From Synergistaceae bacterium (lineage in GTDB: Bacteria; Synergistota; Synergistia; Synergistales; Aminobacteriaceae), in the NCBI GenBank assembly GCA_018436725.1, contig JAHDKT010000026.1:1-64000 (forward strand): 64,000 bases of DNA, given 5' to 3'. The notes below the pieces were generated by a model that saw only the letters and a list, made by a program, of their open reading frames with translations, had not been told where the DNA came from and made no database searches. A program made the translations under genes and the position numbers. This document shows positions 543-25,973 of this stretch, piece by piece (the stretch's first letter is position 1; each line of letters starts with the position of its first letter).

Positions 543-1586
543 TCAACCGGATTCAGAGCTGTAGCCAGCTTTCTTCTGCCCTCTTCCGCGAATCGCCTCT
601 TTCTTCTCCTCCGCCCCGCCTCCGAACCCGCCGCTCAGATACCCCTTCACCGTGAAGTCCGCCTTCCGGCACTCCTGGACGAAACGGGTCGTCCAGTCGC
701 CCGCGAGGCGCTGGAGGGCGTGGCGTTCTCTTCGGAGGCATCGGTTCCGCAGAGGGTGGGAGGCGAACTCGGTGACGACGTTGAAGAGGGCGTAGGCGTT
801 CTCGCCGAACTCTTCGCAGGCGCGATCGCAGAGGTCTTCGGCGTGCTGTTTCAGCGCTTCCCACTCCGCAAGCAGCGGCGCGTTCCCCTCCTTCTGTTCG
901 GGTGCGCGGAGCAGCAGAACTTTCTGGAAGAGCGGGAGGATATCGGCGCGGGGAACCCCGCACGCGCGCAGCGTCTCCAACGATTCGAGGAGGCTGTTTC
1001 TGAGTTCTTTAAGAGAATCCTTCGCCACGAGGAATGTGATCTCTTCCTTTATCTCCTTGCGGGAGTGGGGGTAGCTGAAGCGGATGACCGAGCGGGGGAG
1101 GATCAGACCGTTGCCGCACACCTTGCGGAAGTAGCCGACGTTGAAGGAGAGCGCCCGCTGCCCGTTGTAGCTGTTGGTGACGCGGACGAAGGGGCCGAAT
1201 ACGTCCTTGGCGCCTCCCTTGGGAAAAAAGCTGAAATCCGATGCGGTGCGCTTGTGTTGAAGGTCGATGTAGCAGTGACCTCCGCTCTCCGGAGCGTCCA
1301 CTTTGTGCAGTTCCCACTCGTCGGGCTTCGTATGGGGAAAGACCGCCGAGGCGCACCGGTACGCCCAGTCAAGGGCCTGCCGGTTGTCCACCAGGCGATA
1401 GTCGCGCCCGACCACGCCGACCACGCGGTTTTCCCGCGTGTTGACGATGGCCTTCTTGTCGCGCACGGCAAGGCGCTTCGCCGCCCCTCCCTCGCCGATT
1501 TCCGCGAACACGGGAAACGCCTCCACCGGAAACAGCACGTCTTCAAGAGCCGCCAAACGGGACACGGTCTTCACTCCTCGCTTCAA
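543..1586 (-). CDS. DUF932-like phage/plasmid-associated protein (function unknown)
   Basis: 347-aa ORF. The block ...RVTNSYNGQRALSFNVGYFRKVCGNGL... resembles the conserved core of the DUF932 family as I recall it. Last gene of a three-gene minus-strand operon, with only 35 nt to the upstream RHH gene. Confidence 0.45.
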   Translation of the reverse strand: MKRGVKTVSRLAALEDVLFPVEAFPVFAEIGEGGAAKRLAVRDKKAIVNTRENRVVGVVGRDYRLVDNRQALDWAYRCASAVFPHTKPDEWELHKVDAPESGGHCYIDLQHKRTASDFSFFPKGGAKDVFGPFVRVTNSYNGQRALSFNVGYFRKVCGNGLILPRSVIRFSYPHSRKEIKEEITFLVAKDSLKELRNSLLESLETLRACGVPRADILPLFQKVLLLRAPEQKEGNAPLLAEWEALKQHAEDLCDRACEEFGENAYALFNVVTEFASHPLRNRCLRRERHALQRLAGDWTTRFVQECRKADFTVKGYLSGGFGGGAEEKKEAIRGRGQKKAGYSSESG

Positions 1587-1620
1587 GTCGAATTTCGCCT
1601 TCTACCAGAGGAGGAGCGAA

Positions 1621-1803
1621 TCAGTCGATCCGCCCCTCCTCGATGAACCTTTCTATCAGTGCGCGCACAACGGAGTTCGCCGAATACATCGCGCCCGGAC
1701 GCTCTTCGTTCAATGTCTCCACCGCCCTGTACAGGTCGCGTTTCATCTTCTCGGGAAGACGGATTAAAAGAGTGGTGCTGTCCTTGGCGTACTGATTCGG
1801 CAT
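1621..1803 (-). CDS. ribbon-helix-helix (Arc/MetJ/CopG-type) DNA-binding protein
   Basis: 60-aa ORF with an N-terminal beta-strand (TLLIRLPEKMKRDLYRAVE), typical of RHH repressors. Sits between the Ro60-like gene and the DUF932 gene with short gaps. Confidence 0.55.
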   Translation of the reverse strand: MPNQYAKDSTTLLIRLPEKMKRDLYRAVETLNEERPGAMYSANSVVRALIERFIEEGRID

Positions 1804-1817
1804 GGCGCTTCCCCCCT

Positions 1818-3335
1818 CTATTCGAGGGCGCGGACAATCTCCACGAGGTCTCCGTACCCGCGGATCGAGTCGGCGATGAACGAAACGATGCGATCCGACC
1901 AGCCGTAACAGTAAAAAGTGTTTTCGTCTTCGGGCGGAACCATGGCGAACTGGTACGGAGAGACGTTTATCACGAAAACACGGGTTTCGGCGTTGACCTT
2001 CCTGCGGTACCCTTTAAGAACGTTGAAAAACGGGGAGCCCGTGTTCTGCTGCTCGTCGGTGACGATAACGATGGTGTCGCAGAATACGCGGGAAGCGATC
2101 ATCTCGCGTACTGAAACGCCGGTATTGGTGCCTCCCGAGGCTTCGATCCGCGATGCGGCGGCGAGGATGGACTCTCCGGGCCGCGTTGCGAAGGGGATGG
2201 ATTCTGTGTTGAAGAGGCGGATGAACGTGTCGCCTTCCGACTTCCGCAGTATGGAGAGCGCGAGCAGCGCCCCGGCTTGGAGCATCTGTCCGCTCATGGA
2301 GCAGGAGATGTCGAGCAGAACGGCTGTTCTTCCGGGAATTTCGGGAAGAGCGTCCGCGGAGAGTTCGACGGCCTTTTCGAGGGCGCGGCGAAGCCAGGGA
2401 ACGTCGACCATTGACCATGCGGAGGCGAAACGGAACGGGAGAATCTTCGCTTTGCGGATGGTTTCCGGGTTGGAAAAGCGTTCCTCGATCCCTGGCTGAG
2501 GTTCCGCTTGTGTGAAGACACCGTTGCGGGCGAGGGTGGCGAGGTGCCGCAACAGGGAGAACAAAGTCATGTCCGGCAGAAGCGCCCTCCAGAGTTCGGG
2601 CGACATGCTCTCCACCGAACCGGTGAGCGCGTTCCACGGAATCCGCCCTGCGCGGATCAGTTCGACGGCTTCGGAGAGATTCTCGCGGACATCGAGCCTC
2701 TTGAGCTTCTCGAATGCGGCAATGCGCGGAAGCAGACGAGGGTCGGGGCCGTCCGGACCGCTTTTTCCGGCGATGTACCGAAAGAGGGCCTGCACGGTTT
2801 CGTTCCCCGGCTTCGGGTGATAGACGCGGAGCAGATCTTTCAGAGAGTAGCCCCGTCCTTCCCCGCTGTATTTGAGCGCCTCGTACTCGTCGAGCCGCTC
2901 CAGACGCGCGCAGGCGAGCTTCTTGACCAGCCTGCCGCCCTGCCCTCTTCCCAGGGATTGCAAGGCGAGGGTGAACTCGACAAGATCGGCGACGGTGATG
3001 ACGACGCGGTCGAAAACGAGGGCGAAACGGCGGGGGGCGGCGAGGGAGAGCACGGCGAGGCCGATCAGGGGCTGCAGGCGCATGAACCCCTCGTTGCGGG
3101 CATAGACAAGGGCGCGGGCCATGAAGTCGGGATTTTCGTCGGCGGCGAAACGGTGCAGCGCAAGCGCGTGCTCGCCCAGCATCTCCTCGGACGCGTAGAA
3201 AACGCCGGAGATTGTGTTGACGAGCAGCATCCGGAGGTACTCCTCCCGCCAGTCGCGCTCGAACGCCGGATATTTCTCGCAGTTCAGCGGAAAAGCCGCG
3301 GTTCTCCCTTTCAGGACTTCCAGCGCATGCCCCAT
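1818..3335 (-). CDS. rsr: Ro60-related TROVE-domain protein with C-terminal vWA domain (Rsr-like)
   Basis: Long ORF; start set at the internal ATG (MGHALEVLKGRTAAF...). The N-terminal roughly 350 aa are TROVE-like and the C terminus carries a MIDAS-type motif (LLDISCSMSG = DxSxS) of a von Willebrand A domain. This is the Ro60/Rsr architecture. Confidence 0.7.
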   Translation of the reverse strand: MGHALEVLKGRTAAFPLNCEKYPAFERDWREEYLRMLLVNTISGVFYASEEMLGEHALALHRFAADENPDFMARALVYARNEGFMRLQPLIGLAVLSLAAPRRFALVFDRVVITVADLVEFTLALQSLGRGQGGRLVKKLACARLERLDEYEALKYSGEGRGYSLKDLLRVYHPKPGNETVQALFRYIAGKSGPDGPDPRLLPRIAAFEKLKRLDVRENLSEAVELIRAGRIPWNALTGSVESMSPELWRALLPDMTLFSLLRHLATLARNGVFTQAEPQPGIEERFSNPETIRKAKILPFRFASAWSMVDVPWLRRALEKAVELSADALPEIPGRTAVLLDISCSMSGQMLQAGALLALSILRKSEGDTFIRLFNTESIPFATRPGESILAAASRIEASGGTNTGVSVREMIASRVFCDTIVIVTDEQQNTGSPFFNVLKGYRRKVNAETRVFVINVSPYQFAMVPPEDENTFYCYGWSDRIVSFIADSIRGYGDLVEIVRALE

Positions 3336-3566
3336 CGCGATCACCTCTTGCCGTGAATTTTTGAACAGGTATCCGAAGAAAAAAAGGAACCCGCGAGGAA
3401 TATTGGGCGAGGTCAACCTTGTGGGCGGGAAACCCGCGCATACAAGGCTATTTCGAAGTATCCCCGCCCGGCGCCTCAACGAATTCCGCAAAGAGTATAT
3501 AGGGTATATTAATACCTGTCAAGGGGGGAGGAGAAATTTTTCTCCACTCCCCAGGCAGAAAAAAGC

Positions 3567-3615: not shown

Positions 3616-3903
3616 ATGGAGAAAACATCAGTGAAAGAAAGCCGGATCGAAGCCCGCATTCCCTCCGATCTCAAGAAACGCCTCGCCAGGGCTGCGGCCC
3701 TGCAAGGGCGCACCCTCTCCGACTTCGTCGTCTCCGCGGCGGCGGAGGCCGCGCGCCGCACCATCGAAGAAGAAACGCTGCTGCGCCTGTGCGAAGAGGA
3801 CAGCCGTGCGCTGGCGCTCGACCTCTGCGCCCCCGAAAGGGAGCCCTCCCCCAGGCTGCGTGTCGCAGCGGCCCGCTACGATGCTGCGAAGCAGCCGGAA
3901 TGA
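3616..3903 (+). CDS. tacA: DUF1778-family RHH antitoxin (TacA-like)
   Basis: 95-aa product with the DUF1778 pattern R..DLK..L..AA...G.TLSDFVV..A. The stop overlaps the downstream toxin start (ATGA). Confidence 0.8.
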   Translation: MEKTSVKESRIEARIPSDLKKRLARAAALQGRTLSDFVVSAAAEAARRTIEEETLLRLCEEDSRALALDLCAPEREPSPRLRVAAARYDAAKQPE

Positions 3904-4397
3904 GCTGGAGATGCGTCCCGCTTTCGTCCGCGCATGATCGCAAGACGTTCGCGTGCGGCGTGGCGGAGCTTGACGAGTATTTTCGAAATCGTGCCGGGCA
4001 GGATCAGAAGAGAGGCTTCGCCTCGGTCTACGTCGCCGAATCCGAAACCGGCAAGAAGGACGCCGTCTGCGGCTACTACACTCTCTCCGCAGCAGGCGTC
4101 CTTCTTGAGAATCTTCCCGAGGCTCTGAAGGCAAAAATGCCGAGATACCCCTCCGTCCCGGCGGTTCGACTTGGAAAACTCGCCGTCTCGCTCGACTGCC
4201 GGGGGCAAGGTCTTGGAGAATATTTGCTCATCGACGCAATACGCAGAAGCCTGTCCGCCGCTGTAGGGTGGACTCTTTTCGTCGTGGACGCCAAAGACGA
4301 GAGCGCCCGGTGTTTTTTCCTGCACTTCGGATTCACTCCCCTTCCCAAGGAAGAGCGAACGCTCTACCTTCGGCGCAAGGATATCGAAAAATTGTAG
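3900..4397 (+). CDS. tacT: GNAT-family acetyltransferase toxin (TacT-like)
   Basis: The start overlaps the antitoxin stop. The N-terminal motif HDRKTFACGVAELDEYFRNRAGQDQKRGFASVYV matches TacT/AtaT-type GNAT toxins. A GNAT core with LGKLAV...GQGLG follows. Confidence 0.8.
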   Translation: MSWRCVPLSSAHDRKTFACGVAELDEYFRNRAGQDQKRGFASVYVAESETGKKDAVCGYYTLSAAGVLLENLPEALKAKMPRYPSVPAVRLGKLAVSLDCRGQGLGEYLLIDAIRRSLSAAVGWTLFVVDAKDESARCFFLHFGFTPLPKEERTLYLRRKDIEKL

Positions 4398-4530
4398 CCG
4401 TCTACCAATGAGCTTTCAATACCTTCCGCGCCGTCGTACGCGCGCAAGCCGTTCGGCGTTGTCGTCGTAGTAGCCGAGGGTTTGCGAGTCCATGCGAGAC
4501 CGTCTCCGCCTGCGCTGCCGCTTTCGATCG

Positions 4531-5519
4531 TCAGGAATCCCCTACATCTTCGACGAACTCGTAGCTTCCGTGCCACTCGCCGTAGCTTTCGGAGAAGATG
4601 CCGTTCCTCTCGGCGCCGGCATACTCTTTCCGGCCCGGAAGAATCCGGACGGCGACTATTCCCTCCTCTTCCTGGCGGAGCACCCCGGCATGCACTGCAG
4701 CGACCGCAAGGCTCGAGTCGTCGGTGTAAACGCCGTCTCCCCAGATGTTGCCGTGCGCCGTTCCCCGAACGCGGAAACGGAACACTTCGCCGTTCCGTCC
4801 TCGGAAGGATTCCAGATTCCCGGGATCGTCCGGAACCGTTCCATCCGCAACGGAAATGTCCGAGGAAACTTCGACTCCCAGCTCCCTGAGGCGATCCTTC
4901 GCGATCCCTTCAAGGAAGTCCCCCGTGTTTCCGCTCTGCTCCAGATAGGCCGTATACGCCGCTATCGCCTTCTCCTTTTGTCCGGTGCGCTCCATAGCCC
5001 TGCCGTAGCCGATGAAGTGGTCGAGCAGGTGCGCCGTCTTCGGGTCGGGAATGACTTCGTCGTAGAGGGCCGCAGCCTTCTCCCACATCTCCTCCTGCTC
5101 GTACAGAAAGAGAAGGCGCTGTTTCACAAGGGGGAGTCCGGGAGTGGAAAACATGGAGAACTTGTCGTCCAGTACGCGGGAGCCCGGGTAGCGCGCCAGA
5201 TACTGCTCCAGCAACGCGACGGCGTCCTTGTTTCTGGGCGGATCGAACGCCTGCATGTACATGTTGCTCAGCATCCAGTAGGCCTCTTCGGCGCGCCGCA
5301 CGCGGGGAGCTTTTTCGATAACCTCCAGGAAGAGAGGCTCGATTCCTTGAACATCCTGATCGTCCTTGGCGGCTATCCGATTGAAGAGCGTCCTCGCGAG
5401 CTTCTGCTGCTCGATAAGAGGCAACTCCTCCGCGAATACGCTCCCGACGCCCCACGATACCGAAACCGCCACGAAGAGCAGAGAGAGCGCGATGCAGATG
5501 AACACACGCAATACCCTTC
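4531..5519 (-). CDS. secreted TPR-repeat protein with C-terminal LCCL domain
   Basis: GTG start preceded by GGGAGG. Signal peptide (RVLRVFICIALSLLFVAVSVSWG). TPR-like helical middle region. C-terminal LCCL-like block (GTAHGNIWGDGVYTDDSSLAVAAVHAGVL). Confidence 0.6.
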
Positions 5520-6256
5520 TTTTCACACAAAACACCTCCCTTTCAGCCTGAACACCCCTTGCACACCGGTATTCTTCGCTCCCCAACCTGTCTTTCCAGC
5601 AAAAGCCCGGAATCCCTTCACTGCGGGCGGGGATGAACGACACTTCGGAGCCCGCGCCTTGCGGACAGCTGAATAGTACGATTTTTCCGACGAAAAATCA
5701 ACAGATTACGCGCAGATGCATACTCTTCATGGTATTTTCGACAGTCTTCTTGCAACACACCGCCCAAATTCTTCTGAATCGAGTAGGAGGGAGCGGCTAG
5801 CCCCCGTCCTCTCACACCACCGTGCGTACCGTTCGGTATACGGCGGTTCACGGAGTTTAACCTGTAGACAGAACCGAACTCGGACTGAACAGGCCTTGGG
5901 ATTCGAAGTATTGGATTCCGAAGGCTTTGTTTTATTGGGGCGTTCGCGCCAACCGCCAGTATCCTTTGCGCGATCCGCTGATTTTGACGGCCCATTCATA
6001 CGGTATCCCTCGGGCCATCAGCTCCCGCCGTCGTGTCTTTGTCTTTAAAAAACGTCATATCCGGTCATACTCAAAAGAGAATCACCCTCGATATGGAGAA
6101 CAAGCGTTGCCCATGCGACCTCGCGCCCAGACCGTCTTTCCTCGTCACGCGGCGCAACAGGCGCAAGCCGATCCTCTCGAAGAGCAGTTCCGCATCACCC
6201 GACTCGCGGTCCACGTGGAGCCTCCCATCCGGGATATAGTCATATGCAATTCGTCT

Positions 6257-8134
6257 TCACCTCATTTTCTTTTCGAAGCGGAAGAAATAATCTCCGCCTA
6301 CCATATCTTCAGGCGAATCGGGGTCTTTGTGCCGGGGATTGAAGAATTCCACTATGTGAAAGCCGCATCGATTCACATAAAAATGAATATTTCGCTTTTC
6401 AAAATACGGGGTAACGGTTTCCCAAACTTTTGTGTCAGGATGCAGCTTTTCAACTTCTTTCCAAATAGCCTGTCCCACACCACGACTCTGCGTTCCATAT
6501 TTTACATAGAGGAAATCAAGATGATTGCGTTGTGCTTCTTTGTCGATTACAACGATAGCTCCACCAACCATTTCACCATTCACAACCGCTTTGTAAGCAA
6601 ATGCCCCTTTTTTTGATAATGCAATGTCGATGTCCTTTTCAGGAAGTATCTCCACATCCAAGTCAGAAACCTCTGCCGCTATTCCTTTTTGAAAAGCCTC
6701 TTGCATATCCTTTTTGTATTCTGTCAAATCTTCTTGACTGACAGGTACCAACTTAAAATTCATATATGATGCTCCTTTTACAGGATACTGATACTTTTTT
6801 CGTTTTACGATAAGGAACACTGCTGTAAGCACAACCGCCATCACTTCAGCTGCAACAATGGAAATCCAAATACCATCAATTTGCCAAATCATTGGGAGAA
6901 GCAAAACAGAGCCGAGTTGGAACACCAATGTACGCAAGAAAGCAATCAAGGCGGAGGTTAGTCCGTCGTTCAGAGCAGTAAAGAAACCTGAACCGAAAAT
7001 GGCAAAACCCATAAAGGGAAATGCAATGGCGAAAATACGGAATCCGGAAACAGTCAAATTCATCAGCTCTTTGTCGTAACCCACGAATATTTGAGCCAAC
7101 GGAACAGCAAGCAGCTGTGCGGCAGTTACCATAACGAGCCCACCAACACCAAGCAGTCGAAGGCTTTTTTTTAAAAGTCCCTTGAGTTCGTCGTGATTTC
7201 TTGCTCCATCGTGATAAGCGAAAACAGGTGCTACACCTACAGAGTAACCTATAAAGGCAGCCGAAAAAACCATGCTGACAAACATCATGACACCATAAGC
7301 TGCCACACCGTTTTCCCCGGCGAATTTCAGAAGCTGTATGTTATAGAGCATTCCCACGATACTCATGGAAACATTGTTCATGAATTCGGAAGATCCGTTG
7401 GTACAAGCCTTGAAAATTGTCTTGCCATAAAAGCTGGTTTTGCCGAGGCGAAGAATACTGCTGTTTTTCCGAGAAAAATAGACAACAGGAATAATGCCGC
7501 CTATAAACTGGCTGACAGCCGTAGCAATAGCCGCTCCTGCCAGCTTATATTCCAGCGGAAGAAGAATCACCAAAAAAGCATCCAAAACCATATTGGCAAC
7601 ACCGGCCGCACCCGTCACGAAAAGGCCGAACCCAGGCTTTTCCGCCGCTACAAAAAAGCTTTGAAACACAAGTTGCAACACAAAAAACGGTAAAGTTGTA
7701 AGAATGATTCGTCCATAAACAACACAATGCTCAAGCAGCTCTTCTTTTGCACCAAGCAGCGCGGCAATGGGACGAATAAATACAAATCCCGATATGGTGA
7801 AGAGGACACCAAGAACAAAAGCCACATACACAAACAGGGAGAAATATCTGTTCGCCTTTTCCTTGTCACCCGCACCGAAGGCGTTGGCAACAATGGCGGT
7901 TCCTCCGGCGCCGAACATGAAGCCAACAGTTGCCACGATCATCAAAAATGGCATGATCAGATTGACTGCGGAAAATGCCACTTTGCCTGCATAATTCGAG
8001 ACAAAGAATCCGTCCACCACACTGTAAATGGATGTAAAAATCATCATAGCAATGGACGGAAGTGTAAATTTTATCAGCTTACCGTAGGTGAAACGATCCG
8101 AAAGCTGTATCGTCATGATTTCCTGCCAAACCAA
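6257..8134 (-). CDS. MATE-family efflux transporter fused to a C-terminal GNAT acetyltransferase domain
   Basis: 625 aa. About 12 TM helices typical of MATE in the first 440 aa. The C-terminal roughly 170 aa has the GNAT fold signature (VGGAIVVIDK...RGVGQAIWKEVE). Lower-GC patch. Confidence 0.7.
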   Translation of the reverse strand: MVWQEIMTIQLSDRFTYGKLIKFTLPSIAMMIFTSIYSVVDGFFVSNYAGKVAFSAVNLIMPFLMIVATVGFMFGAGGTAIVANAFGAGDKEKANRYFSLFVYVAFVLGVLFTISGFVFIRPIAALLGAKEELLEHCVVYGRIILTTLPFFVLQLVFQSFFVAAEKPGFGLFVTGAAGVANMVLDAFLVILLPLEYKLAGAAIATAVSQFIGGIIPVVYFSRKNSSILRLGKTSFYGKTIFKACTNGSSEFMNNVSMSIVGMLYNIQLLKFAGENGVAAYGVMMFVSMVFSAAFIGYSVGVAPVFAYHDGARNHDELKGLLKKSLRLLGVGGLVMVTAAQLLAVPLAQIFVGYDKELMNLTVSGFRIFAIAFPFMGFAIFGSGFFTALNDGLTSALIAFLRTLVFQLGSVLLLPMIWQIDGIWISIVAAEVMAVVLTAVFLIVKRKKYQYPVKGASYMNFKLVPVSQEDLTEYKKDMQEAFQKGIAAEVSDLDVEILPEKDIDIALSKKGAFAYKAVVNGEMVGGAIVVIDKEAQRNHLDFLYVKYGTQSRGVGQAIWKEVEKLHPDTKVWETVTPYFEKRNIHFYVNRCGFHIVEFFNPRHKDPDSPEDMVGGDYFFRFEKKMR

Positions 8135-8733
8135 CTGATCGCAAAGTCTGCAACAGCCGGCGCCAAGTCCTTAATATCCCAATCGCTTGTATTTATTATT
8201 AAGTGATATGCGTCACGCCGCCCCCACTCGGCGCCCGAAAGGATTTCCCTTGTCCGAGAGCGAATCTTATCGATCTCTTTCATCCTCTGAACGAGAGCTT
8301 TTTCCGTAAGTTGTTCGCTCTCCGAAGCACGTTCCATACAACGCTTCACCTTTGCCTCCACAACAGCACAAACAAATGTATTGAACGGATTGTATTTCTT
8401 TAAAATCACATCGGCGTTTCTACCTACGATGATACAATCCTTGCCCAAGGCGGCAATGTCCTCGATCACTCTTTTTTGCTCAAGCAGAAGAGTTACCCCG
8501 CTTGTTTGCATATATGTCGCAGAACCGATAGTGCTTCGAAAAGTAATGGGGAAATTCCGCCAACCGTGATTGTGTAACCTGCCCTCTACATAATTCGGAT
8601 CAAGCCCGCTTTTTTCAGCAACAGCAGAAATAATTTCACTGTCGTAATAATCAAAGCTCATAATATCCGCAAGACGTTTTCCGAGTTCACGTCCTCCGGA
8701 GCCGAATTCACGACTTATAGTAATAATTTTCAT
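8113..8733 (-). CDS. cytidylate kinase-like family protein (P-loop NTPase)
   Basis: N-terminal MKIITISREFGSGGRELGKRLA P-loop, characteristic of the cytidylate-kinase-like family. 206 aa. Confidence 0.6.
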   Translation of the reverse strand: MKIITISREFGSGGRELGKRLADIMSFDYYDSEIISAVAEKSGLDPNYVEGRLHNHGWRNFPITFRSTIGSATYMQTSGVTLLLEQKRVIEDIAALGKDCIIVGRNADVILKKYNPFNTFVCAVVEAKVKRCMERASESEQLTEKALVQRMKEIDKIRSRTREILSGAEWGRRDAYHLIINTSDWDIKDLAPAVADFAISWFGRKS

Positions 8734-8745
8734 TGCCTCTCTCCT

Positions 8746-9189
8746 TTATAAAGCACCGATTCGCTTACGAAAACAATCCGCATATTTTTCCATCAGACGA
8801 ATGTATGTGTTGATTTCTTCTGTCGACCAAGATTCAAAAGCCTGTACTTCCGCTTCGTAGAGCTTCGCCACAGTCTTCTTCACATACTCTTTGCCCTTTT
8901 CCGTCAGGACGATTTTTTTTGCTCTGCCTGTGTACTGTTCCAGAAATAGAATGCCATCAGCCTCTAAACCTCGAATAGCCGAGTTCACCGTCTGTTTGCT
9001 GATTCCCGATTTCTTATAAATATCGCTGAGCAAACAAATTTCGCCCGCGTCGTAGATTGTATACAACACAATAGAGACGCTGTCCGTAATGCCCAGCTTT
9101 AACGATGCCTGATGATACAATGCTTCCATTTCAGAAGTCAGATAATTGATTCGATGAATTTCGTCAAATCTCTTTTGATTCATCACCAT
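8746..9189 (-). CDS. MarR-family transcriptional regulator
   Basis: 147 aa with a winged-HTH core (SQLRILLYL-type: SDIYKKSGISKQTVNSAIRGLEADGIL). Followed by a palindromic operator. Confidence 0.8.
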   Translation of the reverse strand: MVMNQKRFDEIHRINYLTSEMEALYHQASLKLGITDSVSIVLYTIYDAGEICLLSDIYKKSGISKQTVNSAIRGLEADGILFLEQYTGRAKKIVLTEKGKEYVKKTVAKLYEAEVQAFESWSTEEINTYIRLMEKYADCFRKRIGAL

Positions 9190-9196
9190 ACCTCCA

Positions 9197-9236
9197 AGTA
9201 CGATTTCGTACCTTTATTATAGTACGAAATCGTACT
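9197..9236. promoter_or_regulatory. candidate MarR operator: two inverted copies of the 14-bp palindrome GTACGAwwTCGTAC
   Basis: agtacgatttcgtac at 9197-9211 and gtacgaaatcgtact at 9222-9236 flank the spacer ctttattata, immediately upstream of the MarR start codon. Confidence 0.5.
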
Positions 9237-9276
9237 TTCATCAATAGGGTTCAAAAAAGTTACAAAAACGAAACTC

Positions 9277-9700
9277 GTGGAAAATATCCCACGAGCCGAG
9301 TCGAATGCCGGAGGCGAGGTCTTGGAGATTATTTTGCTCATCGACGCCATACGCAGAAGCCTGTCCGCTTCCGTTGGTTGGACTCGTTTCGTCGTCGACG
9401 CACAAGACGAAAACACCCCCGACGCCCCACGATACCGAGCCCACCACAAAGAGCAGAGAAAGCGAGATGCGGATGAACACACGCAATACCATTTACTACG
9501 CGATACACCTCCCTTTTCGTCCGGAGCACCCGATGCGCATTACCATACATTGCTCCCAAGCGCGTCTTTTCAGACCTGCAATCGAAACTTTTTCACTCCT
9601 GCCGGGGTCAACAACACTTCGAAACTCCTTCTTGCGACACTTAGCAGACGGTTGAAAATATGATTTTTGACGAAAAATCAATCCTTCTTCCTTCGAGTAT
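9277..9700. repeat. diverged partial duplicate of upstream DNA (about 4180-4296 joined directly to about 5446-5720)
   Basis: Nucleotide and peptide-level similarity. LLIDAIRRSLSASVGWTRFVVDAQDE here versus LLIDAIRRSLSAAVGWTLFVVDAKDE in the toxin gene. PDAPRYRAHHKEQRKRDADEHTQY here versus PDAPRYRNRHEEQRERDADEHTQY at 5446-5530. The atgatttttgacgaaaaatcaa motif recurs at 9660 and 5683. Confidence 0.7.
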
Positions 9701-9775
9701 TATCGCCCCGATACATACACTTGCCGACATTAGTACGACTTCAGAGCGAAACTCTCGCCAAGCTTCTTCCGAAAA

Positions 9776-9818
9776 CAAAGAAGCGCCGGATCTCGGGCGA
9801 GATCTCCGGCGCTTCTTT
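9776..9818 (-). terminator. hairpin terminator downstream of ahpC
   Basis: aagaagcgccggatctc-gggc-gagatctccggcgcttctt perfect stem followed by a T-rich tract on the minus strand. Confidence 0.5.
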
Positions 9819-9837
9819 TCTCTGTGTTTTTCCAGAT

Positions 9838-10404
9838 TTACAGCTTGCCTACCAGATCGATCCCCGGAGTCAGGGTGTCCGCCCCGGGCTTCCACTTGGC
9901 GGGGCAGACCTTGTCGCCGTACTTGGCGACGAACTGGGCGGCCTGCACCTTGCGGAGCAGCTCCTCGGCATTGCGGCCTATACCCATGTCGTGGATCTCG
10001 TACGCCTTGATCACCCCTTCGGGATCGACGATGAAGGTGCCGCGAAGCGCCTGTCCGTCGCTCTCGACCATCACGCCGAAGAAACGGGAAAGAACGCATG
10101 CGGGGTCGGCGAGCATGGGGTACTGTATTCTCTTGATGGTCTCCGACGCGTCGGCCCACGCCTTATGCACGAAGTGCGTATCGGTGGAGACGGAGTAGAT
10201 TTCGCAGCCGATCTCCTTGAACTGCTCGTAAAAATCGGAGAGATCGTCGAGTTCCGTGGGGCAGACGAAGGTAAAGTCCGCGGGGTAGAAGAAGAAGACT
10301 CCCCATTTACCAAGAACGGAATCCCGTGTAACTTCAGTGAACTTCCCGTTGCGATACGCCTGAACTTTGAATTCCTCCAAACGACGTCCGATCAAATTTT
10401 CCAT
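9838..10404 (-). CDS. ahpC: peroxiredoxin (alkyl hydroperoxide reductase subunit C)
   Basis: 188 aa. Peroxidatic Cys motif FTFVCPTE and resolving Cys in the C-terminal VCPAKW, both typical 2-Cys AhpC features. Confidence 0.9.
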   Translation of the reverse strand: MENLIGRRLEEFKVQAYRNGKFTEVTRDSVLGKWGVFFFYPADFTFVCPTELDDLSDFYEQFKEIGCEIYSVSTDTHFVHKAWADASETIKRIQYPMLADPACVLSRFFGVMVESDGQALRGTFIVDPEGVIKAYEIHDMGIGRNAEELLRKVQAAQFVAKYGDKVCPAKWKPGADTLTPGIDLVGKL

Positions 10405-10605
10405 AATGCACCCTCCTCGAAAAGTATGTATTTCTTATGAACCGCGGATGTGGCCGCAAGCCGCGTCCGCGGAGAGAATCCAATTAAAAGCAAGTCGATT
10501 TAAAACAACAGTTAAATGATAGTCCATGTTGTTAGGTTTGTCTACCTCAAAAAGAAGAAAAACATAAAAATGCCGGAGAAAAATTTTTCACTCTTTTCTC
10601 GATGC

Positions 10606-10662
10606 AACACGATGCGACAGAGCGCCCTCCGGTTGTCGGACCGAAGGGCGCTCTGTCGCATC
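10606..10662 (-). terminator. hairpin downstream of the flotillin gene
   Basis: cgatgcgacagagcgccct...agggcgctctgtcgcatcg, a long inverted repeat just past the stop at 10675. Confidence 0.4.
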
Positions 10663-10674
10663 GATATGTTTTCG

Positions 10675-12153
10675 CTACGCGTTCCCCGTCTCTTCTTCCG
10701 GGGGCTTCTCCCTGTGCGGGTCGGTCTCGACGGGTTCGCCCGCGTCGGCCATCCAGCGTTCCGGCCCGGCCTCGCGGGGAACGGGCCAAGGCGCTTCGTT
10801 CTTCTGTCCGCCCTTCATGTAGGCGGGCAGCTCCATTCCCGCCATCTTGAACATGTCCTGCAGCGGCGGGATGGATTTCATCAGGCCGGAGAGGAAGTTC
10901 GCGGTGGAGGTCTTGTCGCTCGTTCCTCCGGCGCTGTCCCAGACCGTGACCTTGTCGATCTTGATCCCCTTGACGGCCTCGACCTGCGTCTTCACCAGTT
11001 CGGGGAGCTTGTCGGCGATCATCATCATGATGGCCTTGTCGGTATCGCCGCCCGCTGCCTTGACCAGGCGCTCGAAGCCCTCCGCCTGTTTGACCAGAAT
11101 CTCGCGGAGTCCTTTGGCCTCGGCGTTCATCTTCGCGAAGATGGCGTCGGCCTCGCCCGCGGCCTTTCGGCGCATCTCCTCCGCGTCGGCGTCGGCGCGG
11201 ATCTGGATCTTTTCCTTCTCGATTCCGGCATACACAAGCACGTCGGCCTCCTGGGTGGCCTTCTCGCGCTTGGCGCGCGCAAGCTCGGCTTCCTCCTCCG
11301 CCTTGTACGACTCCTCCAGCGCCTTGGCCGCCTGCACCTTCTCCGCGGCTTCGGCGAGCCTGTTGGACTCCGCCTGCTTTTCGCGGCGCTCCGCCTCCGA
11401 CTGCGCGATGGTGATCTTCGACCGGTTCTCTCCCTCGACTGCGGCGGCGTTCGCCTGAGCAACCTGAATCCGCTGGTCTCTCTGCGCGTTGGCCTCGCCG
11501 ATGGCCCCGTCGCGGTCCTGCTCGGCGACGCTCTTCTTCGCGTCGTTGACGGCCTTGGCCGCCGCTTCCTTGCCGAGCGCCTGGATGTAGCCGGACTCGT
11601 CGTTGATGTCGGTGACGTTGACGTTGATCAGGCGCAGGCCGATCTTCTTCAGCTCGGCCTCCACGTTGGCGGTGACGTTGGCGAGGAACTTGTCGCGGTC
11701 GGTGTTGATCTCCTCGATATCCATGGTGGCGATGACGAGGCGGAGCTGGCCGAAGATGATGTCTTTGGACAGCTCCTGTATCTCCGCGAGCTGGAGCCCC
11801 AGAAGTCGCTCGGCGGCGTTCTGCATGATGCCCGGCTCGGTGGAGATGCCGACCGTGAAGCGCGAGGGGACGTCGACGCGGATGTTCTGCTTGCTGAGCG
11901 CGTTTCTGAGGTTGACTTCGATGGAGAGCGGCGTCAGGTCGAGGAACTGGTAGGCCTGAATGACGGGCCAGATGAACGCGGCGCCTCCGTGGATGCACTT
12001 GGAGGACTGGTGCTGTCCGTCGATCGTCCCCACCTTTCCGTAGACCACGAGGATCTTGTCGGAGGGGCACTTCTTGTAACGAGCGAAGAGCGCGGCTACG
12101 GTGGTGAAGATGATGACGACTATCAGGGTGATCAGAATCAGACCGAATGTCAT
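10675..12153 (-). CDS. flotillin-family SPFH/band-7 protein
   Basis: 492 aa. N-terminal TM helix, SPFH domain, long Ala/Glu-rich coiled-coil (EA repeats) and flotillin C-terminal region. RBS AAGGAGAGG. Confidence 0.85.
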   Translation of the reverse strand: MTFGLILITLIVVIIFTTVAALFARYKKCPSDKILVVYGKVGTIDGQHQSSKCIHGGAAFIWPVIQAYQFLDLTPLSIEVNLRNALSKQNIRVDVPSRFTVGISTEPGIMQNAAERLLGLQLAEIQELSKDIIFGQLRLVIATMDIEEINTDRDKFLANVTANVEAELKKIGLRLINVNVTDINDESGYIQALGKEAAAKAVNDAKKSVAEQDRDGAIGEANAQRDQRIQVAQANAAAVEGENRSKITIAQSEAERREKQAESNRLAEAAEKVQAAKALEESYKAEEEAELARAKREKATQEADVLVYAGIEKEKIQIRADADAEEMRRKAAGEADAIFAKMNAEAKGLREILVKQAEGFERLVKAAGGDTDKAIMMMIADKLPELVKTQVEAVKGIKIDKVTVWDSAGGTSDKTSTANFLSGLMKSIPPLQDMFKMAGMELPAYMKGGQKNEAPWPVPREAGPERWMADAGEPVETDPHREKPPEEETGNA

Positions 12154-12184
12154 AGGTATCCTCTCCTTTCAGATGTCGGACGTG

Positions 12185-12790
12185 TTACGCCTTCTCGACC
12201 AGCAGCACGCCGTTGCCGGCGACCTCCGCAACCCGCACTGCGGTCCCTCTTGGAAGCGCCTCCCCCGCCGTCACGGCGTCGATCTCGCGAAGCGAGCCCT
12301 GCAGCGTGATGGAGATCTTCCCCCGTCCCGAGCGGCCTCCGGGGATGGGGATGTAGACCTCCCCCGTTCCGCCGATCGCGTTGTTGACGTCCATCGTGCC
12401 GCTCTGCGCCAGCCGCGTGATGGAGACGAAGAGCAGCGCGACGAGCAGCATGACCCCGCCCGCGATGAGCAGAGAGCCGAAGAGGACGAGGTATTCGCCC
12501 GCCCCGGCGTTGTGGAGCGTGATGCCGCTCCAGCCGAAGACCGTGAAGAAGGTGATGAAGTTCTTCACGGTGAAGATGCGGAAACCGCTCGCCTCGCCCG
12601 CCTCTCCGTCTCCGTCCGAGTCGAGGCCCTCTCCTCCGTCGCCTTCCACGCCGCCGTCCGCGTCCTCCCCGCCCATGCCCGTGAAGGTAAGCACGAGCTG
12701 AATAAAGAAGAGCACGGTAAAGGGAATCGCGATATACCAGAAGATTTTTTCAAACATGATCATGCCGCTCCACCACTCGCCCAATCGCAC
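12185..12790 (-). CDS. NfeD-like membrane protein (flotillin-associated, OB-fold C-terminus)
   Basis: TM helices, then an acidic Gly/Asp-rich linker, then a C-terminal beta-rich OB-like domain (GEVYIPIPGGRSGRGKISITLQGS...GTAVRVAEV). Exact start uncertain (GTG, TTG and ATG candidates between 12757 and 12790). Immediately upstream of the flotillin gene. Confidence 0.65.
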   Translation of the reverse strand: MRLGEWWSGMIMFEKIFWYIAIPFTVLFFIQLVLTFTGMGGEDADGGVEGDGGEGLDSDGDGEAGEASGFRIFTVKNFITFFTVFGWSGITLHNAGAGEYLVLFGSLLIAGGVMLLVALLFVSITRLAQSGTMDVNNAIGGTGEVYIPIPGGRSGRGKISITLQGSLREIDAVTAGEALPRGTAVRVAEVAGNGVLLVEKA

Positions 12791-12821
12791 CGCCTCCTTT
12801 GCGCTGCCTGAATGTATGTCG

Positions 12822-14252
12822 TTAACTGCGGATTCGCAGGCTGAACTTGACGACGACCTCTTCGTCGGGTTTTGCGGGAACGTCGAAGCGGAGCGTGAAG
12901 GCGTCGGCCTGTTCGTACGGATGGGTCGATGCGATCACTTCCCAGTCCCCCCAGACGGGTTCCAAGAAGGAGACGACGACGGACTCCTCCTTCTTGCGGT
13001 TTCTGACGACCAGCTCCCACGACGTCTCGTAGAGGTTGTCGGCCAGCTTCCTGTAGCGCGTCTGCCGGCGTTCGGCGACCACGTCGAACGCCTCGCCCAC
13101 CCTCAGGCGGACCTCCTCGTTGCGCGGCGTGTGCTCGATGCGGTCCTCGCCGATGAACTGGAGGCTGCCTTGGGAGTCTTTCTTGTACAGCCTGATGATC
13201 CCCTTGGGAAGCGGCATGCCGAGGTTGTTCTCCTCGGAATTTTTAAAGGAGATGACGACGTCCACCTTCTGTTTCAGCAGCCCCCGCTGGAGCGACGAGG
13301 TGAAGTAGTGCCGTTCGCCGCGGGTGATGTACTCCTTGCCGATCTTCGTCCCGAACGCTTCGAGCAGGCTGATCTGCTTGGTCTGGTTGTTCCCTATCGT
13401 CGTCTTCCGCGACAGGTTGTAGATGTGGTATTCGAAAAATGATTCTTCCACGAAGGAGGGCGCAGCCTCCGGAACCGGCATTCCCATCCCCCGGTACATG
13501 GGGGGAGGAACGACGTCGGCGATCGTCTGCACTTCTCCCGCGATCAGTTTGAGCGTCGCGTCCCGGTACGCCGCGCCGCTCCTGTTGTTCAGGGTGACCC
13601 ACCCGGTGAGGTCGGCGGCGGTGTCGGCGTCGTCGAGGACGAAGATGTAGTCCGCCTTCCACGTCATCCCCTTCGTCAGGTAGGAGACCTCGACGTCGTG
13701 CTTCTCCTTCGCGGAGTTGGCATAGAGCCACGCCAAGGTGGGGCGCGCATAGAGGTTGTCCGGTATGGAGGGGACGATCTTCAGCCCGGGGTAGTTCAGG
13801 TAGATCTGGCCGCCGATGTCGAAGACGAGCCCGTTGTTCGTGCTCAGCAGCGTGCCCTCGACGATCTCCTTCTTCCCCTGGTAGTCGTTCCATACCTCGA
13901 TCTTCACCGTGCGCCCGACGAACTTCTCCAGCAGCTTCTCCGGGCTGATGAGGTCGTACTCGTAGTTCTGCTCGAGAATCGCCAGCGAGCGGGGATCGTT
14001 GAGCGACTTCACATGCACCGTTTCCGGCCTGATGGCGGAAGCCACGTCCATGAAACGCAGCTCACCCTGTCCCTCTTTAAGCAGGATGCTCCTGACGTCC
14101 TTCACAAGGGCGAGATCCGTGTTGTACACCGTGACCTCTACCCCCGTCCGATCGGCTTCCGAGCTCGAAACCACCTCCGCCCCGAGTGCAGGCAGGGCGG
14201 AAAAGAAGACGAGCAGGAAGAAACACAGGAACAGGATGTGTACGCTTTTCAT
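12822..14252 (-). CDS. secreted DUF4139-family protein
   Basis: 476 aa with signal peptide. N-terminal and C-terminal conserved blocks resemble the DUF4140/DUF4139 (mucoidy-inhibitor-like) family. Same operon as nfeD and flotillin. Confidence 0.5.
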   Translation of the reverse strand: MKSVHILFLCFFLLVFFSALPALGAEVVSSSEADRTGVEVTVYNTDLALVKDVRSILLKEGQGELRFMDVASAIRPETVHVKSLNDPRSLAILEQNYEYDLISPEKLLEKFVGRTVKIEVWNDYQGKKEIVEGTLLSTNNGLVFDIGGQIYLNYPGLKIVPSIPDNLYARPTLAWLYANSAKEKHDVEVSYLTKGMTWKADYIFVLDDADTAADLTGWVTLNNRSGAAYRDATLKLIAGEVQTIADVVPPPMYRGMGMPVPEAAPSFVEESFFEYHIYNLSRKTTIGNNQTKQISLLEAFGTKIGKEYITRGERHYFTSSLQRGLLKQKVDVVISFKNSEENNLGMPLPKGIIRLYKKDSQGSLQFIGEDRIEHTPRNEEVRLRVGEAFDVVAERRQTRYRKLADNLYETSWELVVRNRKKEESVVVSFLEPVWGDWEVIASTHPYEQADAFTLRFDVPAKPDEEVVVKFSLRIRS

Positions 14253-14313
14253 TTGTCAAACCTCCCCTTTTTCCACAATGCTAGGAACACACGTTTTGTT
14301 CACCGCTCTCCGA

Positions 14314-15513
14314 CTACGTCGCACCCGCGGATTCCGCGAGAGCGTCGAGCAGGAAGAGCACACGCATTAAATAGAGCAGCACGCCGCCGTTCGCGGCGAG
14401 GATGACGCCGATGAGCAGTCCGGGGATGATCCCGGGCGCGAGCATCGACGAGCCGAACATCGCCGAGAGTCCCCCCAGGGCGATCTGCGTGGAGTACAGT
14501 TTGACGAGGAGCGACGGAACCGGTGTGGAGGGCAGCATCTTCCGCGTCTTCACCAGCGAGGGGAGCGCCTTCGCCAGCGTGAGGCCTCCGTTCAGGATGT
14601 TGAGCACGCCGACGAGGAGCGTCAGCGGGGCGACCAGGATGTCCGGCACGATGCAGGAGACGATGCCGAGTCCGGCGAACAACACGCCGAGGTACACGAC
14701 GAGCCAAGAACGAGGGAATGCGCCGATGGGGGTATTCCCCGCCGCAAGCATCTGCACCGAGAAGACGACCATCAGCAGGCCGAGCTGCGCGCTTCCCGAG
14801 AAGGGGAGCAGGCCGAGGTTCACGGGCAGGAGCAGGGCTCCGAGGAGCATCATGAAGACGCCGGTGAGCATGAGCATCGCCTTGTCGAAGGGGAGCCCGC
14901 CCTTCTCTCCCGCATCCGCGGAAGCCTCTGGGTACTCCGTGTACACGGCGGCGAGGACGCGCGAGAGATTCAGTATCGCCGCGCCGTAGAGGAGAACCGC
15001 CGTCGCAGTGCCGTACCCGGACAGAAAGTCCGGCCTGTGCACGAGCAGTCCGGAGAGCATGGACAGCGCATAGACCGCGCCGCACGCGAAGGGCAGGGGC
15101 CGGAGCACGCCCCCGACGCGCAACCACAAGCGGAGTTTTTCCTTGGAGAAGAGCATCTGAAGCAACAGGAGCGCCCCTCCGGGTCCGAGGCAGACGACCA
15201 GCATCCACCGAGCGAGCATGTTCGGTATTCCGGGGATGAAGCAGGTCACGATCCCGATAGAGGCGACCGAAACGCCGACGCCGAGCAGCGCGTTCGACAC
15301 GGGAAGCTCGCCGAAAGGCGTCTTCCCGAGCATGACGGTCTGCAGGGCGAAGAAGAAGAGCAGAAGACCGTACAGGCCGTTCTCATAGTACGGCAGCAGG
15401 CCCGCGTACACCGGGAAGAGCAGGATTCCGGCGATGAACACCGTCATTCCGGCGATGAACAGCAAGACGGTTTCCAGCGGCAGGCACACGATATCGAAGA
15501 GTCCGCGACGCAT
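14314..15513 (-). CDS. polytopic integral membrane protein (unknown function)
   Basis: 399 aa, about 10-12 hydrophobic helices, no recognisable catalytic motif. First gene of the flotillin operon. Confidence 0.5.
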   Translation of the reverse strand: MRRGLFDIVCLPLETVLLFIAGMTVFIAGILLFPVYAGLLPYYENGLYGLLLFFFALQTVMLGKTPFGELPVSNALLGVGVSVASIGIVTCFIPGIPNMLARWMLVVCLGPGGALLLLQMLFSKEKLRLWLRVGGVLRPLPFACGAVYALSMLSGLLVHRPDFLSGYGTATAVLLYGAAILNLSRVLAAVYTEYPEASADAGEKGGLPFDKAMLMLTGVFMMLLGALLLPVNLGLLPFSGSAQLGLLMVVFSVQMLAAGNTPIGAFPRSWLVVYLGVLFAGLGIVSCIVPDILVAPLTLLVGVLNILNGGLTLAKALPSLVKTRKMLPSTPVPSLLVKLYSTQIALGGLSAMFGSSMLAPGIIPGLLIGVILAANGGVLLYLMRVLFLLDALAESAGAT

Positions 15514-15551
15514 CGGATCAAGCCTCCTTTCTTCAGAGAAGGGGACGCGCC

Positions 15552-16358
15552 CTAATAGTACGTCCCCTTCGTCCTGTAGTTCTCCCGGCGCTCGGCGGCC
15601 AACTTCCGTGCGAAGACGTCGTACTCATCCCTGCGCTCCCTGTAGGTCGCGTCGAAATCGCGCATCGTCTGCGGGAAGATGATCAGGAGGGATTTCTTCT
15701 CCACCTCCGTCAGAATGTACTCGACCGCGTCGTCCACGCGGACGGCGTCCGGAGGCGGCGGAACGTCCCCGAAGATCGCGGTGGCCACGTTGCCGGGGCA
15801 GAAGACGCTGAAGTTCAGCCCCTCCGTCTCCAGCTCGTACTGCAGGCTCTCCGTCATGGAGATCACGGCGGCTTTCGTGGCGGCGTAGACCGCCTGGTAC
15901 GGAATGGGCACCCGCCCCGTGATGGAGCCGGTATTCACGATATGCCCGAAGCCCTGCTCGCGCATGAGGGGAATCGCGCCGTACGTGCCGTAGACGACGC
16001 CCATCAGGTTGAGATCCACGACGAACTTCCATATCTCGAAGGTGATCTTCTCGGTGGGAAGCGTCATGCCTATCCCCGCGTTGTTGAAGACGAAATCGAG
16101 ATGCCCTTCGAACGCTTTCGCCCTGGAGACGAGTTCGGCGACCTGTTCCTGCTTGGTCACGTCGGCGAGTACGGGGAAGACCTTTCCGGGATACTGTTCG
16201 TTCAGGCGCTTCGACTCCCGCGTGAGGTTCTCCTCCTTGACGTCGCCCATGAAGACGGCGGCGGCGCCCTTCGCCAGCAGATGCTCGACGAGCCCCAGAC
16301 CGATTCCCGAGGCGGCTCCCGTCACCGCGGAGACCTTGTTCTCATAATATCCGGCCAT
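15552..16358 (-). CDS. SDR-family NAD(P)-dependent oxidoreductase
   Basis: Start at MAGYYENK. TGAASGIG Rossmann motif, NNAG, catalytic YxxxK (YAATK), about 268 aa. Confidence 0.85.
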   Translation of the reverse strand: MAGYYENKVSAVTGAASGIGLGLVEHLLAKGAAAVFMGDVKEENLTRESKRLNEQYPGKVFPVLADVTKQEQVAELVSRAKAFEGHLDFVFNNAGIGMTLPTEKITFEIWKFVVDLNLMGVVYGTYGAIPLMREQGFGHIVNTGSITGRVPIPYQAVYAATKAAVISMTESLQYELETEGLNFSVFCPGNVATAIFGDVPPPPDAVRVDDAVEYILTEVEKKSLLIIFPQTMRDFDATYRERRDEYDVFARKLAAERRENYRTKGTYY

Positions 16359-16375
16359 CACATACACTCCCTTCT

Positions 16376-25520: not shown

Positions 25521-25958
25521 ATGTTCGAAACCGTTCTTGTCGTCCTGATCGGGTTGGCGGGCGGCGTCGCCGTGGGGCTTCAGTCACCGCTCGCCGGAGC
25601 TATGGGACAGAGAATAGGCCCGACCGCGAGCAGCCTGATCATCCATCTGGGGGGACTGTTTCTCTCTTTGCTCCTGCTCTGGTTCAGAGGGGGAGAACGG
25701 ATTCAGCACTGGCAGTCGCTGCCATGGTTCATGCTCGCAGCCGGGGGGCTGAGAGTCGTTCTTTTCCAGACGATCAACGTCACGCTCCCCCGCCTCGGGG
25801 CGACCGCCATGGTGACGTTGATCATCGCGGGGCAGCTGGTAACGGGCGTTCTGATCGATTCGCAGGGGTGGCTCGGAGTCGCGGCGCGCCCGCTCGAACC
25901 GGTCAGGGCGGCGGGCGTCCTCCTGCTGCTCGCAGGGGGCTGGTTGATCGTGCGATAG
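25521..25958 (+). CDS. small DMT-superfamily membrane protein (DUF606/YdcZ-like)
   Basis: 145 aa, four to five TM helices, RBS AAGGAGAG. A truncated paralog recurs at 44233-44603. Confidence 0.65.
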   Translation: MFETVLVVLIGLAGGVAVGLQSPLAGAMGQRIGPTASSLIIHLGGLFLSLLLLWFRGGERIQHWQSLPWFMLAAGGLRVVLFQTINVTLPRLGATAMVTLIIAGQLVTGVLIDSQGWLGVAARPLEPVRAAGVLLLLAGGWLIVR

Positions 25959-25973
25959 GGCGGGGAAGACGAC

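Follow-up and report, generated by a model that had tools for sequence, protein, structure and literature searches.

The first 64,000 nucleotides of contig JAHDKT010000026.1 (assembly GCA_018436725.1, Synergistaceae bacterium), called the window throughout, contain a low-GC island of three genes beside the toxin-antitoxin pair tacAT and a gene for a secreted TPR/LCCL protein, and a diverged partial copy of the tacT-TPR/LCCL region lies at the far end of that island. Comparison with related loci (L numbers below) indicates that the window is a chromosome of one lineage (A-type) carrying a 3.8-kb patch of DNA from a second lineage (V-type). The patch probably entered beside the intact recipient genes in the geometry of homology-facilitated illegitimate recombination (HFIR), with a homologous anchor in the peroxiredoxin gene ahpC at one end and a microhomology joint inside a group II intron at the other. 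The initial annotation had drawn the island at 5720-9700 and explained it by an old duplication followed by insertion. Both points had to be revised: the foreign DNA spans ~6036-9850 plus an intron fragment at 5778-6045, and each of the two lineages contributed its own orthologous version of the locus, the remnant occurring alone in V and a single intact copy in A.

Repeat copies, locus states and joints

Pairwise alignment (BLASTN, 9200-9760 against 4100-5760) showed that the diverged repeat is real and well above chance. Block 1 matched 9301-9418 to 4192-4308 at 85% over 118 nt with one 1-nt indel (E 1e-33), and block 2 matched 9408-9681 to 5433-5701 at 72% over 281 nt (E 4e-32); the identity of 80-85% first proposed therefore holds for block 1 and is too high for block 2. 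The blocks are colinear, and both were recovered again by self-BLAST of the whole window and by a repeat scan. Block 1 comes from inside tacT, the GNAT toxin gene, towards its 3' end. Block 2 covers codons 1-28 of TPR/LCCL, which is encoded on the opposite strand, and the region upstream of it, and weak homology runs on beyond the block to ~9763/5777. No exact match between the copies exceeds 21 nt, and the one of that length (9418/5443) is internal. An 11-nt overlap of the blocks (9408-9418), in which the 3' part of tacT loosely matches the TPR signal-peptide codons, marks the scar of a deletion of ~1.12 kb (4309-5432). The toxin 3' end does abut the signal-peptide codons, as had been noticed, with somewhat less DNA missing than the 1.15 kb given at first.

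The intact copy at 3619-4397 has the make-up of a TacAT module, namely a PF08681 antitoxin and a GNAT toxin whose genes overlap by 4 nt, and the exact TacT protein is present on 14 contigs. The signal-peptide codons of the intact TPR/LCCL gene (5433-5526) form part of the repeat (copy 1b). In the remnant, tacT' (9301-9418) is 85-87% identical to tacT of L027 and L161 and 96.6% identical to L152. Gene callers annotate an open reading frame (ORF) of 83-87 aa at 9241-9492 (-), with the ribosome-binding site and upstream region kept; this fusion of the 28-aa donor TPR/LCCL signal peptide to antisense tacT' is most likely spurious or junk. A scan of metagenome contigs for an exact 23-mer of the remnant returned L152 (state V) alone and turned up no intact TPR' or tacT' of the remnant lineage.

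Three states of the locus were recovered. State A (L161/L162, GCA_018433135.1) reads flotillin-ahpC-TPR/LCCL-188 aa-tacT-tacA-...-tpx, without the cassette. State V (L152, L153 and L157-L160, from at least four independent data sets) reads ahpC-T'-IG'-ΔTPR'::ΔtacT'-MarR-kinase-like-MATE/GNAT-X-tpx; it shares the window's deletion scar and cassette junction and has the remnant copy only, with no second intact one. State W (the window and L001-L019; its MAGs include GCA_018433465.1, GCA_018436905.1 and GCA_018434985.1) has both copies, and the window's proteins recur exactly, in the same arrangement and at >99% identity, on many contigs from digester metagenomes and metagenome-assembled genomes (MAGs), with one member of the flotillin cluster named Synergistales bacterium. 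L157 lies within a 210-kb contig of GCA_053529055.1 with complete tpx-oxidase-ETF (electron-transfer flavoprotein) synteny, resembling L027. L152 is 97.7% identical to the window from 6036 to 10629; on the left side of 6036 come 146 nt and then tpx (thiol peroxidase), not the intron, and L153 and L157-L160 share this order. Searching with TPR/LCCL homologues yielded further cassette-free relatives, which read flotillin-ahpC-TPR/LCCL-Ro60 (L022-L026, L155) or ahpC-TPR/LCCL-tacT-tacA-tpx (L027); L020/L021 are TPR/LCCL relatives without ahpC, and the contexts of relatives P0003 and P0006 added no intron-bearing state.

The window (W), L157 (V) and L161 (A) were then compared site by site in a three-way alignment. 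Across 10000-13500, W agreed with A against V at 188 sites, with V against A at 9, and V and A agreed against W at 5; across 9400-9999 the corresponding counts were 9, 106 and 12. The patch 6036-9855 is 98.3% identical to L157. The flanks of W are 99.6% and 98.9% identical to L161, with only 3 differing sites in 835 nt at ahpC, and the flanks of V differ from A by ~5% on the flotillin/ahpC side and by 11% on the tpx side. Together with the divergence of V and W at the left joint, described below, the single-nucleotide polymorphism (SNP) counts and patch identity indicate that W is an A-type chromosome carrying a 3.8-kb V-type patch. The comparison with relatives lacking the island, which the initial annotation had proposed, thus gave an intact copy 98.9% identical to cassette-free A and SNPs of a V-type patch in an A-type chromosome. 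State A is not derivable from W, because the A terminator is A-type and common to L022; nor is state V, because its flanks are V-type on both sides. An earlier assignment of a V-type backbone to W, made from L152 and L022 alone, was overturned by the comparison with L157 and L161.

Both joints can be placed closely. On the right, 9855 is the last site at which W agrees with A against V and 9838 the first at which it agrees with V against A, and identity to L022 falls from ~97% to 50-60% at the ahpC stop. A switch from native to foreign DNA at the intron site (9764) was also considered and ruled out, the identity profile and the site table both placing the switch at the ahpC stop. On the left, homology between V and W stops at 6036 with the common sequence ...GACGTTTTTT[A/C]AAGACAA[A/G]GA, past which W enters codons of the intron-encoded protein (IEP) and V heads to tpx. 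The microhomology AAGACAA(A/G)GA at ~6036-6045 (7-10 nt) is common to V (L152, L157) and the IEP tail, and donor and recipient share no homology at this joint. Beyond the intron, 5778->4548 matches L161 9748-10982 at 98.9%, the match starting exactly at the intron 3' end. Between the cassette and the left joint lies a stretch of V-type DNA, segment X, for which, taken with the adjoining 146 nt of V, blastn and tblastx found no further homologue in the window or the fetched loci; its ORF has no Pfam match.

Features of the locus in the window (position, strand and basis)
Feature	Position	Strand	Basis or remark
tacA antitoxin (RHH, TacA1), intact, recipient A-type	3619..3903	+	Pfam PF08681 E 3e-20; 94.3% DNA to L161 tacAT
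tacT GNAT toxin, 165 aa, intact, recipient copy	3900..4397	+	Pfam Acetyltransf_7/10/1; 4192-4308 = repeat copy 1a
TPR + LCCL secreted protein, intact, recipient copy	4531..5526	-	Pfam LCCL E 8e-17, TPR_14; 98.9% DNA to L161
A-type recipient intergenic region upstream of TPR/LCCL	5527..5777	-	starts exactly at intron insertion site; L161 alignment
Class-C group II intron, 5'-truncated, last ~268 nt	5778..6045	-	Rfam RF00029, copy alignments, IEP tail
Segment X, donor V-type DNA between cassette and illegitimate joint	6036..6231	.	94% to L152 and L157
MATE efflux transporter with C-terminal GNAT acetyltransferase, 619 aa	6257..8116	-	Pfam MatE 2e-39, Acetyltransf_1 6e-7
Cytidylate-kinase-like protein (PF13189)	8113..8733	-	Pfam 5e-35
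MarR-family regulator, 145 aa	8746..9183	-	Pfam MarR_2
Terminator-like hairpin and T run at cassette/remnant boundary	9272..9297	-	outside Desulfobotulus-shared DNA (ends 9253)
tacT' fragment, donor lineage, pseudogene (copy 2a)	9301..9418	+	internal piece only, 118 nt, 1-nt insertion (frameshifted)
TPR/LCCL' first 28 codons, donor lineage (copy 2b)	9408..9492	-	out-of-frame fusion to antisense tacT'
IG', donor-lineage intergenic region	9493..9769	-	W = V at nearly every informative site
T', donor-type ahpC terminator	9770..9837	-	W = V at nearly every informative site; hairpin fold -36.5 kcal/mol
Homologous crossover interval, last 17 nt of ahpC and stop	9838..9855	.	site table
ahpC peroxiredoxin, recipient type, homology anchor	9838..10404	-	TIGR03137 297.8 bits, over cut-off

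The recipient side of the window also differs from L161. The 188-aa gene of state A (L161 11044-11610, no Pfam match) lies between TPR/LCCL and tacT and is absent from the window, which has a 133-nt gap at 4398-4530. The window matches L161 at 98.9% in TPR/LCCL and at only 94% in tacAT, which points to further mosaicism.

The group II intron fragment at the left edge

Domains V-VI of a group II intron were detected at 5848->5778, covering positions 1-77 of the 77 of Rfam model RF00029 at 36.7 bits, just below the gathering score (GA) of 40 (E 1.8e-5); no Rfam family near the island reached its gathering score. A 24-mer from these domains occurs at 119 or more loci in GTDB genomes, mostly Bacillota, and none of the matches listed is recognisably Synergistales. 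The 119 listed copies align at 92-96%, and most of the alignments end at 5777/5778, which fixes the intron 3' end. The C-terminal 54 codons of the IEP, a maturase, lie directly before domain V at 6045->5884 and are interrupted by an in-frame TAA at 5934-5932. A protein search with this tail returned three homologues, all of 110 residues or fewer, two of which carry PF08388; Pfam on the intron fragment gave no GIIM match and no reverse transcriptase (RT) domain. Domains I-IV and the 5' GUGYG end are not present, the DNA upstream of 6045 being V-type (segment X) and not intron. Such a fragment cannot splice or move.

Class C (IIC) introns such as B.h.I1 of Bacillus halodurans insert just after intrinsic terminators (PMC1702495; PMC4748821), and two full-length relatives of the window fragment (L035 and L079, 1.9 kb, Lachnospiraceae bacterium AC2029) stand directly after a terminator hairpin and T run. 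The intron 3' end at 5778 is exactly where the A-type intergenic region resumes. The corresponding empty site in L161 and L022 has a hairpin (-39 to -47 kcal/mol) followed by GTTT/TCAG (the slash marks the insertion point) and lies 3-4 nt past the ahpC terminator hairpin (...CUGCGUUU/UCAG). By this position the fragment sits at a canonical class-C site on A-type DNA, its original terminator no longer adjoining. Like B.h.I1 it has domains V-VI and a maturase tail, and its insertion point is a few nucleotides past a terminator hairpin, with the intron oriented like the gene that the hairpin ends, but it is only ~268 nt long, has a stop codon in the maturase tail, and its original terminator has been replaced. 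Neither a full-length copy of this intron in Synergistales nor an A-type genome with the intron was among the matches listed.

Proposed history and its alternatives

HFIR joins one homologous anchor to 3-10 bp of microhomology, and is described from natural transformation of Acinetobacter baylyi, Streptococcus pneumoniae and Pseudomonas stutzeri in PMC6382021, which cites de Vries & Wackernagel 2002. Three of its features were found here: a one-sided homologous anchor, a microhomology joint in that size range, and identifiable donor-like and recipient-like sequences. One anchor, one microhomology joint and replaced recipient DNA together give the HFIR geometry, and HFIR is in our analysis the best candidate mechanism.

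We infer that an A-type ancestor had gained a complete class-C group II intron just after the ahpC terminator hairpin, with a junction of A-type ahpC terminator and intron 5' end (GTGNTGCG...), and that both joints arose in a single event. In lineage V, ~5% diverged in flotillin/ahpC, the spread cassette had already replaced tacA and the 5' part of tacT, and through a 1.1-kb deletion what was left of tacT had become fused to codons 1-28 of TPR/LCCL. The A-type ancestor would then have taken up V DNA. That this DNA paired in ahpC is shown by the crossover within the 9838-9855 interval, and the sequence likewise shows its other end joined illegitimately, at the microhomology, to the maturase codons at the tail of the intron. 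In this way 3.8 kb of donor DNA would have replaced the recipient ahpC terminator and ~1.65 kb of the intron. As the left joint lay upstream of the recipient TPR/LCCL-tacAT, those genes stayed intact, and the donor's degenerate remnant now lies 4 kb from them in direct orientation, as the "diverged partial direct repeat".

Several points weigh against this history. No A-type genome with a full-length intron at the site was found, so the recipient's state before the event is a reconstruction. No donor allele is seen in ahpC until 17 nt before its end, an unusually narrow margin for a homologous anchor if the true donor did not itself have an A-like ahpC; the V variants are themselves mosaic in ahpC. 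The exact parents were not recovered: the patch is 1.7% off the closest V found, and the recipient tacAT matches L161 at no more than 94%. Delivery by transformation would further presuppose natural competence, and all the sequences are metagenome assemblies.

The main rival keeps the same parents and divides the event in two. A V segment would have entered by ordinary recombination, for instance with another intron copy, or a point further to the left, as the site of the second crossover, and a later microhomology deletion, removing the intervening DNA and the 5' part of the intron, would have made the joint between X and the intron. Microhomology of 7-10 nt is as typical of spontaneous deletions as of HFIR, the remnant already carries one such deletion, and the locus is mosaic in all lineages. 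This route nevertheless needs an intermediate that was not observed and takes more than the one event of HFIR; in state V no intron adjoins X, and had a double crossover been anchored on the left in tpx, the recipient TPR-tacAT would have been lost rather than kept. We consider the two-step route unlikely, though worth keeping in view. Far less probable is that the intron itself captured the DNA, its reverse transcriptase switching template after ~270 nt of target-primed reverse transcription at the ahpC terminator and copying a V-type transcript of the 3.8-kb operon, with the cDNA end resolved by homology in ahpC. Such a natural retro-capture of cargo genes by an intron would account for an intron truncated from the 5' side, as abortive reverse transcription would leave it, for the microhomology at the joint, for cargo genes all co-oriented with the intron, and for an insertion bounded exactly by the intron 3' end. 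It would, however, need V-type RNA and an A-type chromosome in one cell, and the reverse transcriptase would have had to read past two hairpins that resemble terminators (9770-9837 and 9272-9297) and a piece of gene in antisense. The locus bears neither poly-A nor any other mark of an RNA intermediate, and DNA-level HFIR accounts for the same features with known steps.

The reading nearest to that of the initial annotation, an in-situ duplication of tacT-TPR in the window's lineage with decay of one copy and insertion of cargo between the two, agrees with the direct orientation and the 72-85% identity of the copies. It is already contradicted by the remnant standing alone in V with the same deletion junction, by a cassette-free A whose single copy is nearly identical to the intact one, and by V-type SNPs in remnant and cargo with A-type SNPs on both flanks. 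Nearby non-coding DNA is moreover at least 95% conserved among the lineages, so that an intergenic copy diverged by 28% is not of local age, and we give a duplication of this kind almost no weight. An assembly chimera, in which V-type and A-type contigs were merged through a common intron repeat, is just as improbable. Many short contigs do break between 5822 and 6086, and domains V-VI are a widely repeated sequence, yet at least five independent assemblies from different pipelines are identical across both joints (JGI contig L001/L010; NCBI MAG contigs L002, L004, L005 and L011), the joint between X and the intron is unique sequence rather than repeat, and the right switch lies in ahpC, not at a repeat.

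The HFIR interpretation is close to the experimental cases in its ahpC anchor, its joint of 7-10 nt (3-10 bp in experiments) and the replacement of the recipient DNA between them. It differs in being drawn from natural metagenome genomes and not from an experiment, in having its illegitimate joint inside a resident group II intron, and in foreign DNA that held a degenerate orthologue of the recipient's neighbouring genes, so that the product mimics a duplication. With integrase/att islands the locus shares low-GC cargo between direct repeats that include a host gene end. Unlike them it has no integrase; its repeats are 72-85% identical over 400 nt with no identical core at the island ends, and those ends (5778/6036 and ~9850) do not lie in the repeats.

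The transferred cassette, neighbouring features and significance

The gene calls of the initial annotation agree with Pfam throughout (TacA1, GNAT toxin, TPR + LCCL, MatE + Acetyltransf_1 fusion, Cytidylate_kin2 and MarR), and its view of the AT-rich genes as acquired cargo was borne out by low GC at third codon positions (GC3) and by related DNA elsewhere. The three cargo genes have a GC of 42-45% and a GC3 of 43-47%, against 58-67% and 67-89% in neighbouring genes. A MarR + MATE-GNAT pair of Desulfobotulus sp. is 84-87% identical in DNA across 9253-8746 and 8121-6232, and its MATE-GNAT protein is 87% identical to that of the window; the kinase-like gene is absent from the Desulfobotulus version, and L028-L032 have a gap between MarR and MATE-GNAT. 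The MATE part has homologues of 80-88% protein identity in Clostridia, Brevinema and Leptotrichiaceae, from which we take the cassette to be widely exchanged; the core at 6232-9253 is a widely transferred MarR/MATE-GNAT efflux cassette.

A promoter-like site upstream of marR (9244->9216) scored 10 of 12 in a promoter scan, and a perfect 16-nt inverted repeat (AAGTACGATTTCGTAC / GTACGAAATCGTACTT, ~9198-9240), present as a palindrome in both L157 and the window, overlaps its -10 element. This palindrome is a probable MarR operator, which fits MarR autoregulation, and because it lies over the promoter and the ORFs are intact the cargo is probably a MarR-repressed efflux operon. The transporter belongs to the MATE family by Pfam MatE (135 bits against a cut-off of 24.9) and falls below the generic MATE subfamily TIGR00797 (137 against 147.4); it scores far under the MepA/FepA equivalog cut-offs (77.3 bits against 850 for the MepA equivalog NF000131). 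MarR-regulated MATE efflux operons of the mepRAB type are known in Firmicutes. The window operon resembles them in its marR gene directly upstream of the MATE gene, the palindrome over the promoter and database relatives named MepA, and differs in the C-terminal GNAT domain, the kinase-like gene between regulator and transporter and a MepA model score of 77 against 850 bits.

No terminal inverted repeats or transposon-like ends were found around the cassette, and the ORF list and Pfam gave only MarR, the kinase-like gene and MATE-GNAT in the island, with no tyrosine or serine recombinase gene; the window has no tRNA genes. The cassette was thus not brought to this locus by an IS or an integrase. 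The initial statement that transposase and integrase are absent is right for intact ORFs, but it overlooked the intron 3' fragment at 5778-6045 and an insertion sequence (IS)-like end at 1-141. The latter (terminal sequence CACTCTTGTCCAAAATAGG...) occupies a site that is empty in L010 and L011, and L011 (GCA_018434985.1, 12497-12638) has the same end, inverted, inserted at window position 6397 in the GNAT part of the MATE-GNAT gene. From these two positions the IS-like element is active in the population, and a cargo gene is knocked out in one MAG.

Further features of the window lie outside the island. To the left of tacA (543-3341) are a Ro60/TROVE-vWA gene, a 60-aa ORF and a DUF932 gene, near which no Y-RNA-like Rfam match was found. 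In relatives the Ro60/DUF932 module is followed by different defence-like genes, either SNF2/DUF4391/KilA-N/methylase or DUF499/DUF7680/DUF1156, and L161, which does not have the module, retains ~160 nt from the 3' end of DUF932 in the interval separating tacA from tpx (L161 12745-12907). Around ~14000-16500, in the region of DUF4139 and a 399-aa gene, V and A agree and W differs at 129 sites in 2.5 kb (~5%), which suggests that the W lineage received a further import here. Between flotillin and ahpC, at 10562-10666 (-), lies an inverted repeat with perfect 24-nt arms and a sub-threshold match to Rfam STnc400 (39.7 bits, GA 80); it is probably the flotillin terminator. Cobalamin riboswitch matches above the gathering score lie at 48885-49045 and 53673-53736 (-), the second partial (model positions 49-166). 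Diverged repeats also occur at 25603-28980 and 44248-45298 (three blocks of 78-96% identity, ~17 kb apart) and as a tandem pair of ~1.1 kb at 54043-55178 and 55539-56665 (67%).

All parts of the locus are of known kinds: an HFIR-type integration, a decayed class-C intron, a TacAT module with its pseudogene, and a MarR-MATE efflux operon. The type of event is well documented and ordinary, and no new kind of system is revealed. The value of the case lies in an unusually complete reconstruction, in which public metagenomes yield the product state as well as sequences like the donor and like the recipient, so that both joints can be read to the nucleotide. The case further shows that diverged direct repeats flanking an island can stem from a decayed orthologue brought along from the donor with the cargo, and need reflect neither a duplication nor an att site, a caution for annotation pipelines and island finders that read repeats around islands. 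For these bacteria, the results indicate that a MarR/MATE-GNAT cassette crossed from phylum to phylum and later passed from one Synergistales lineage to another in anaerobic digesters.

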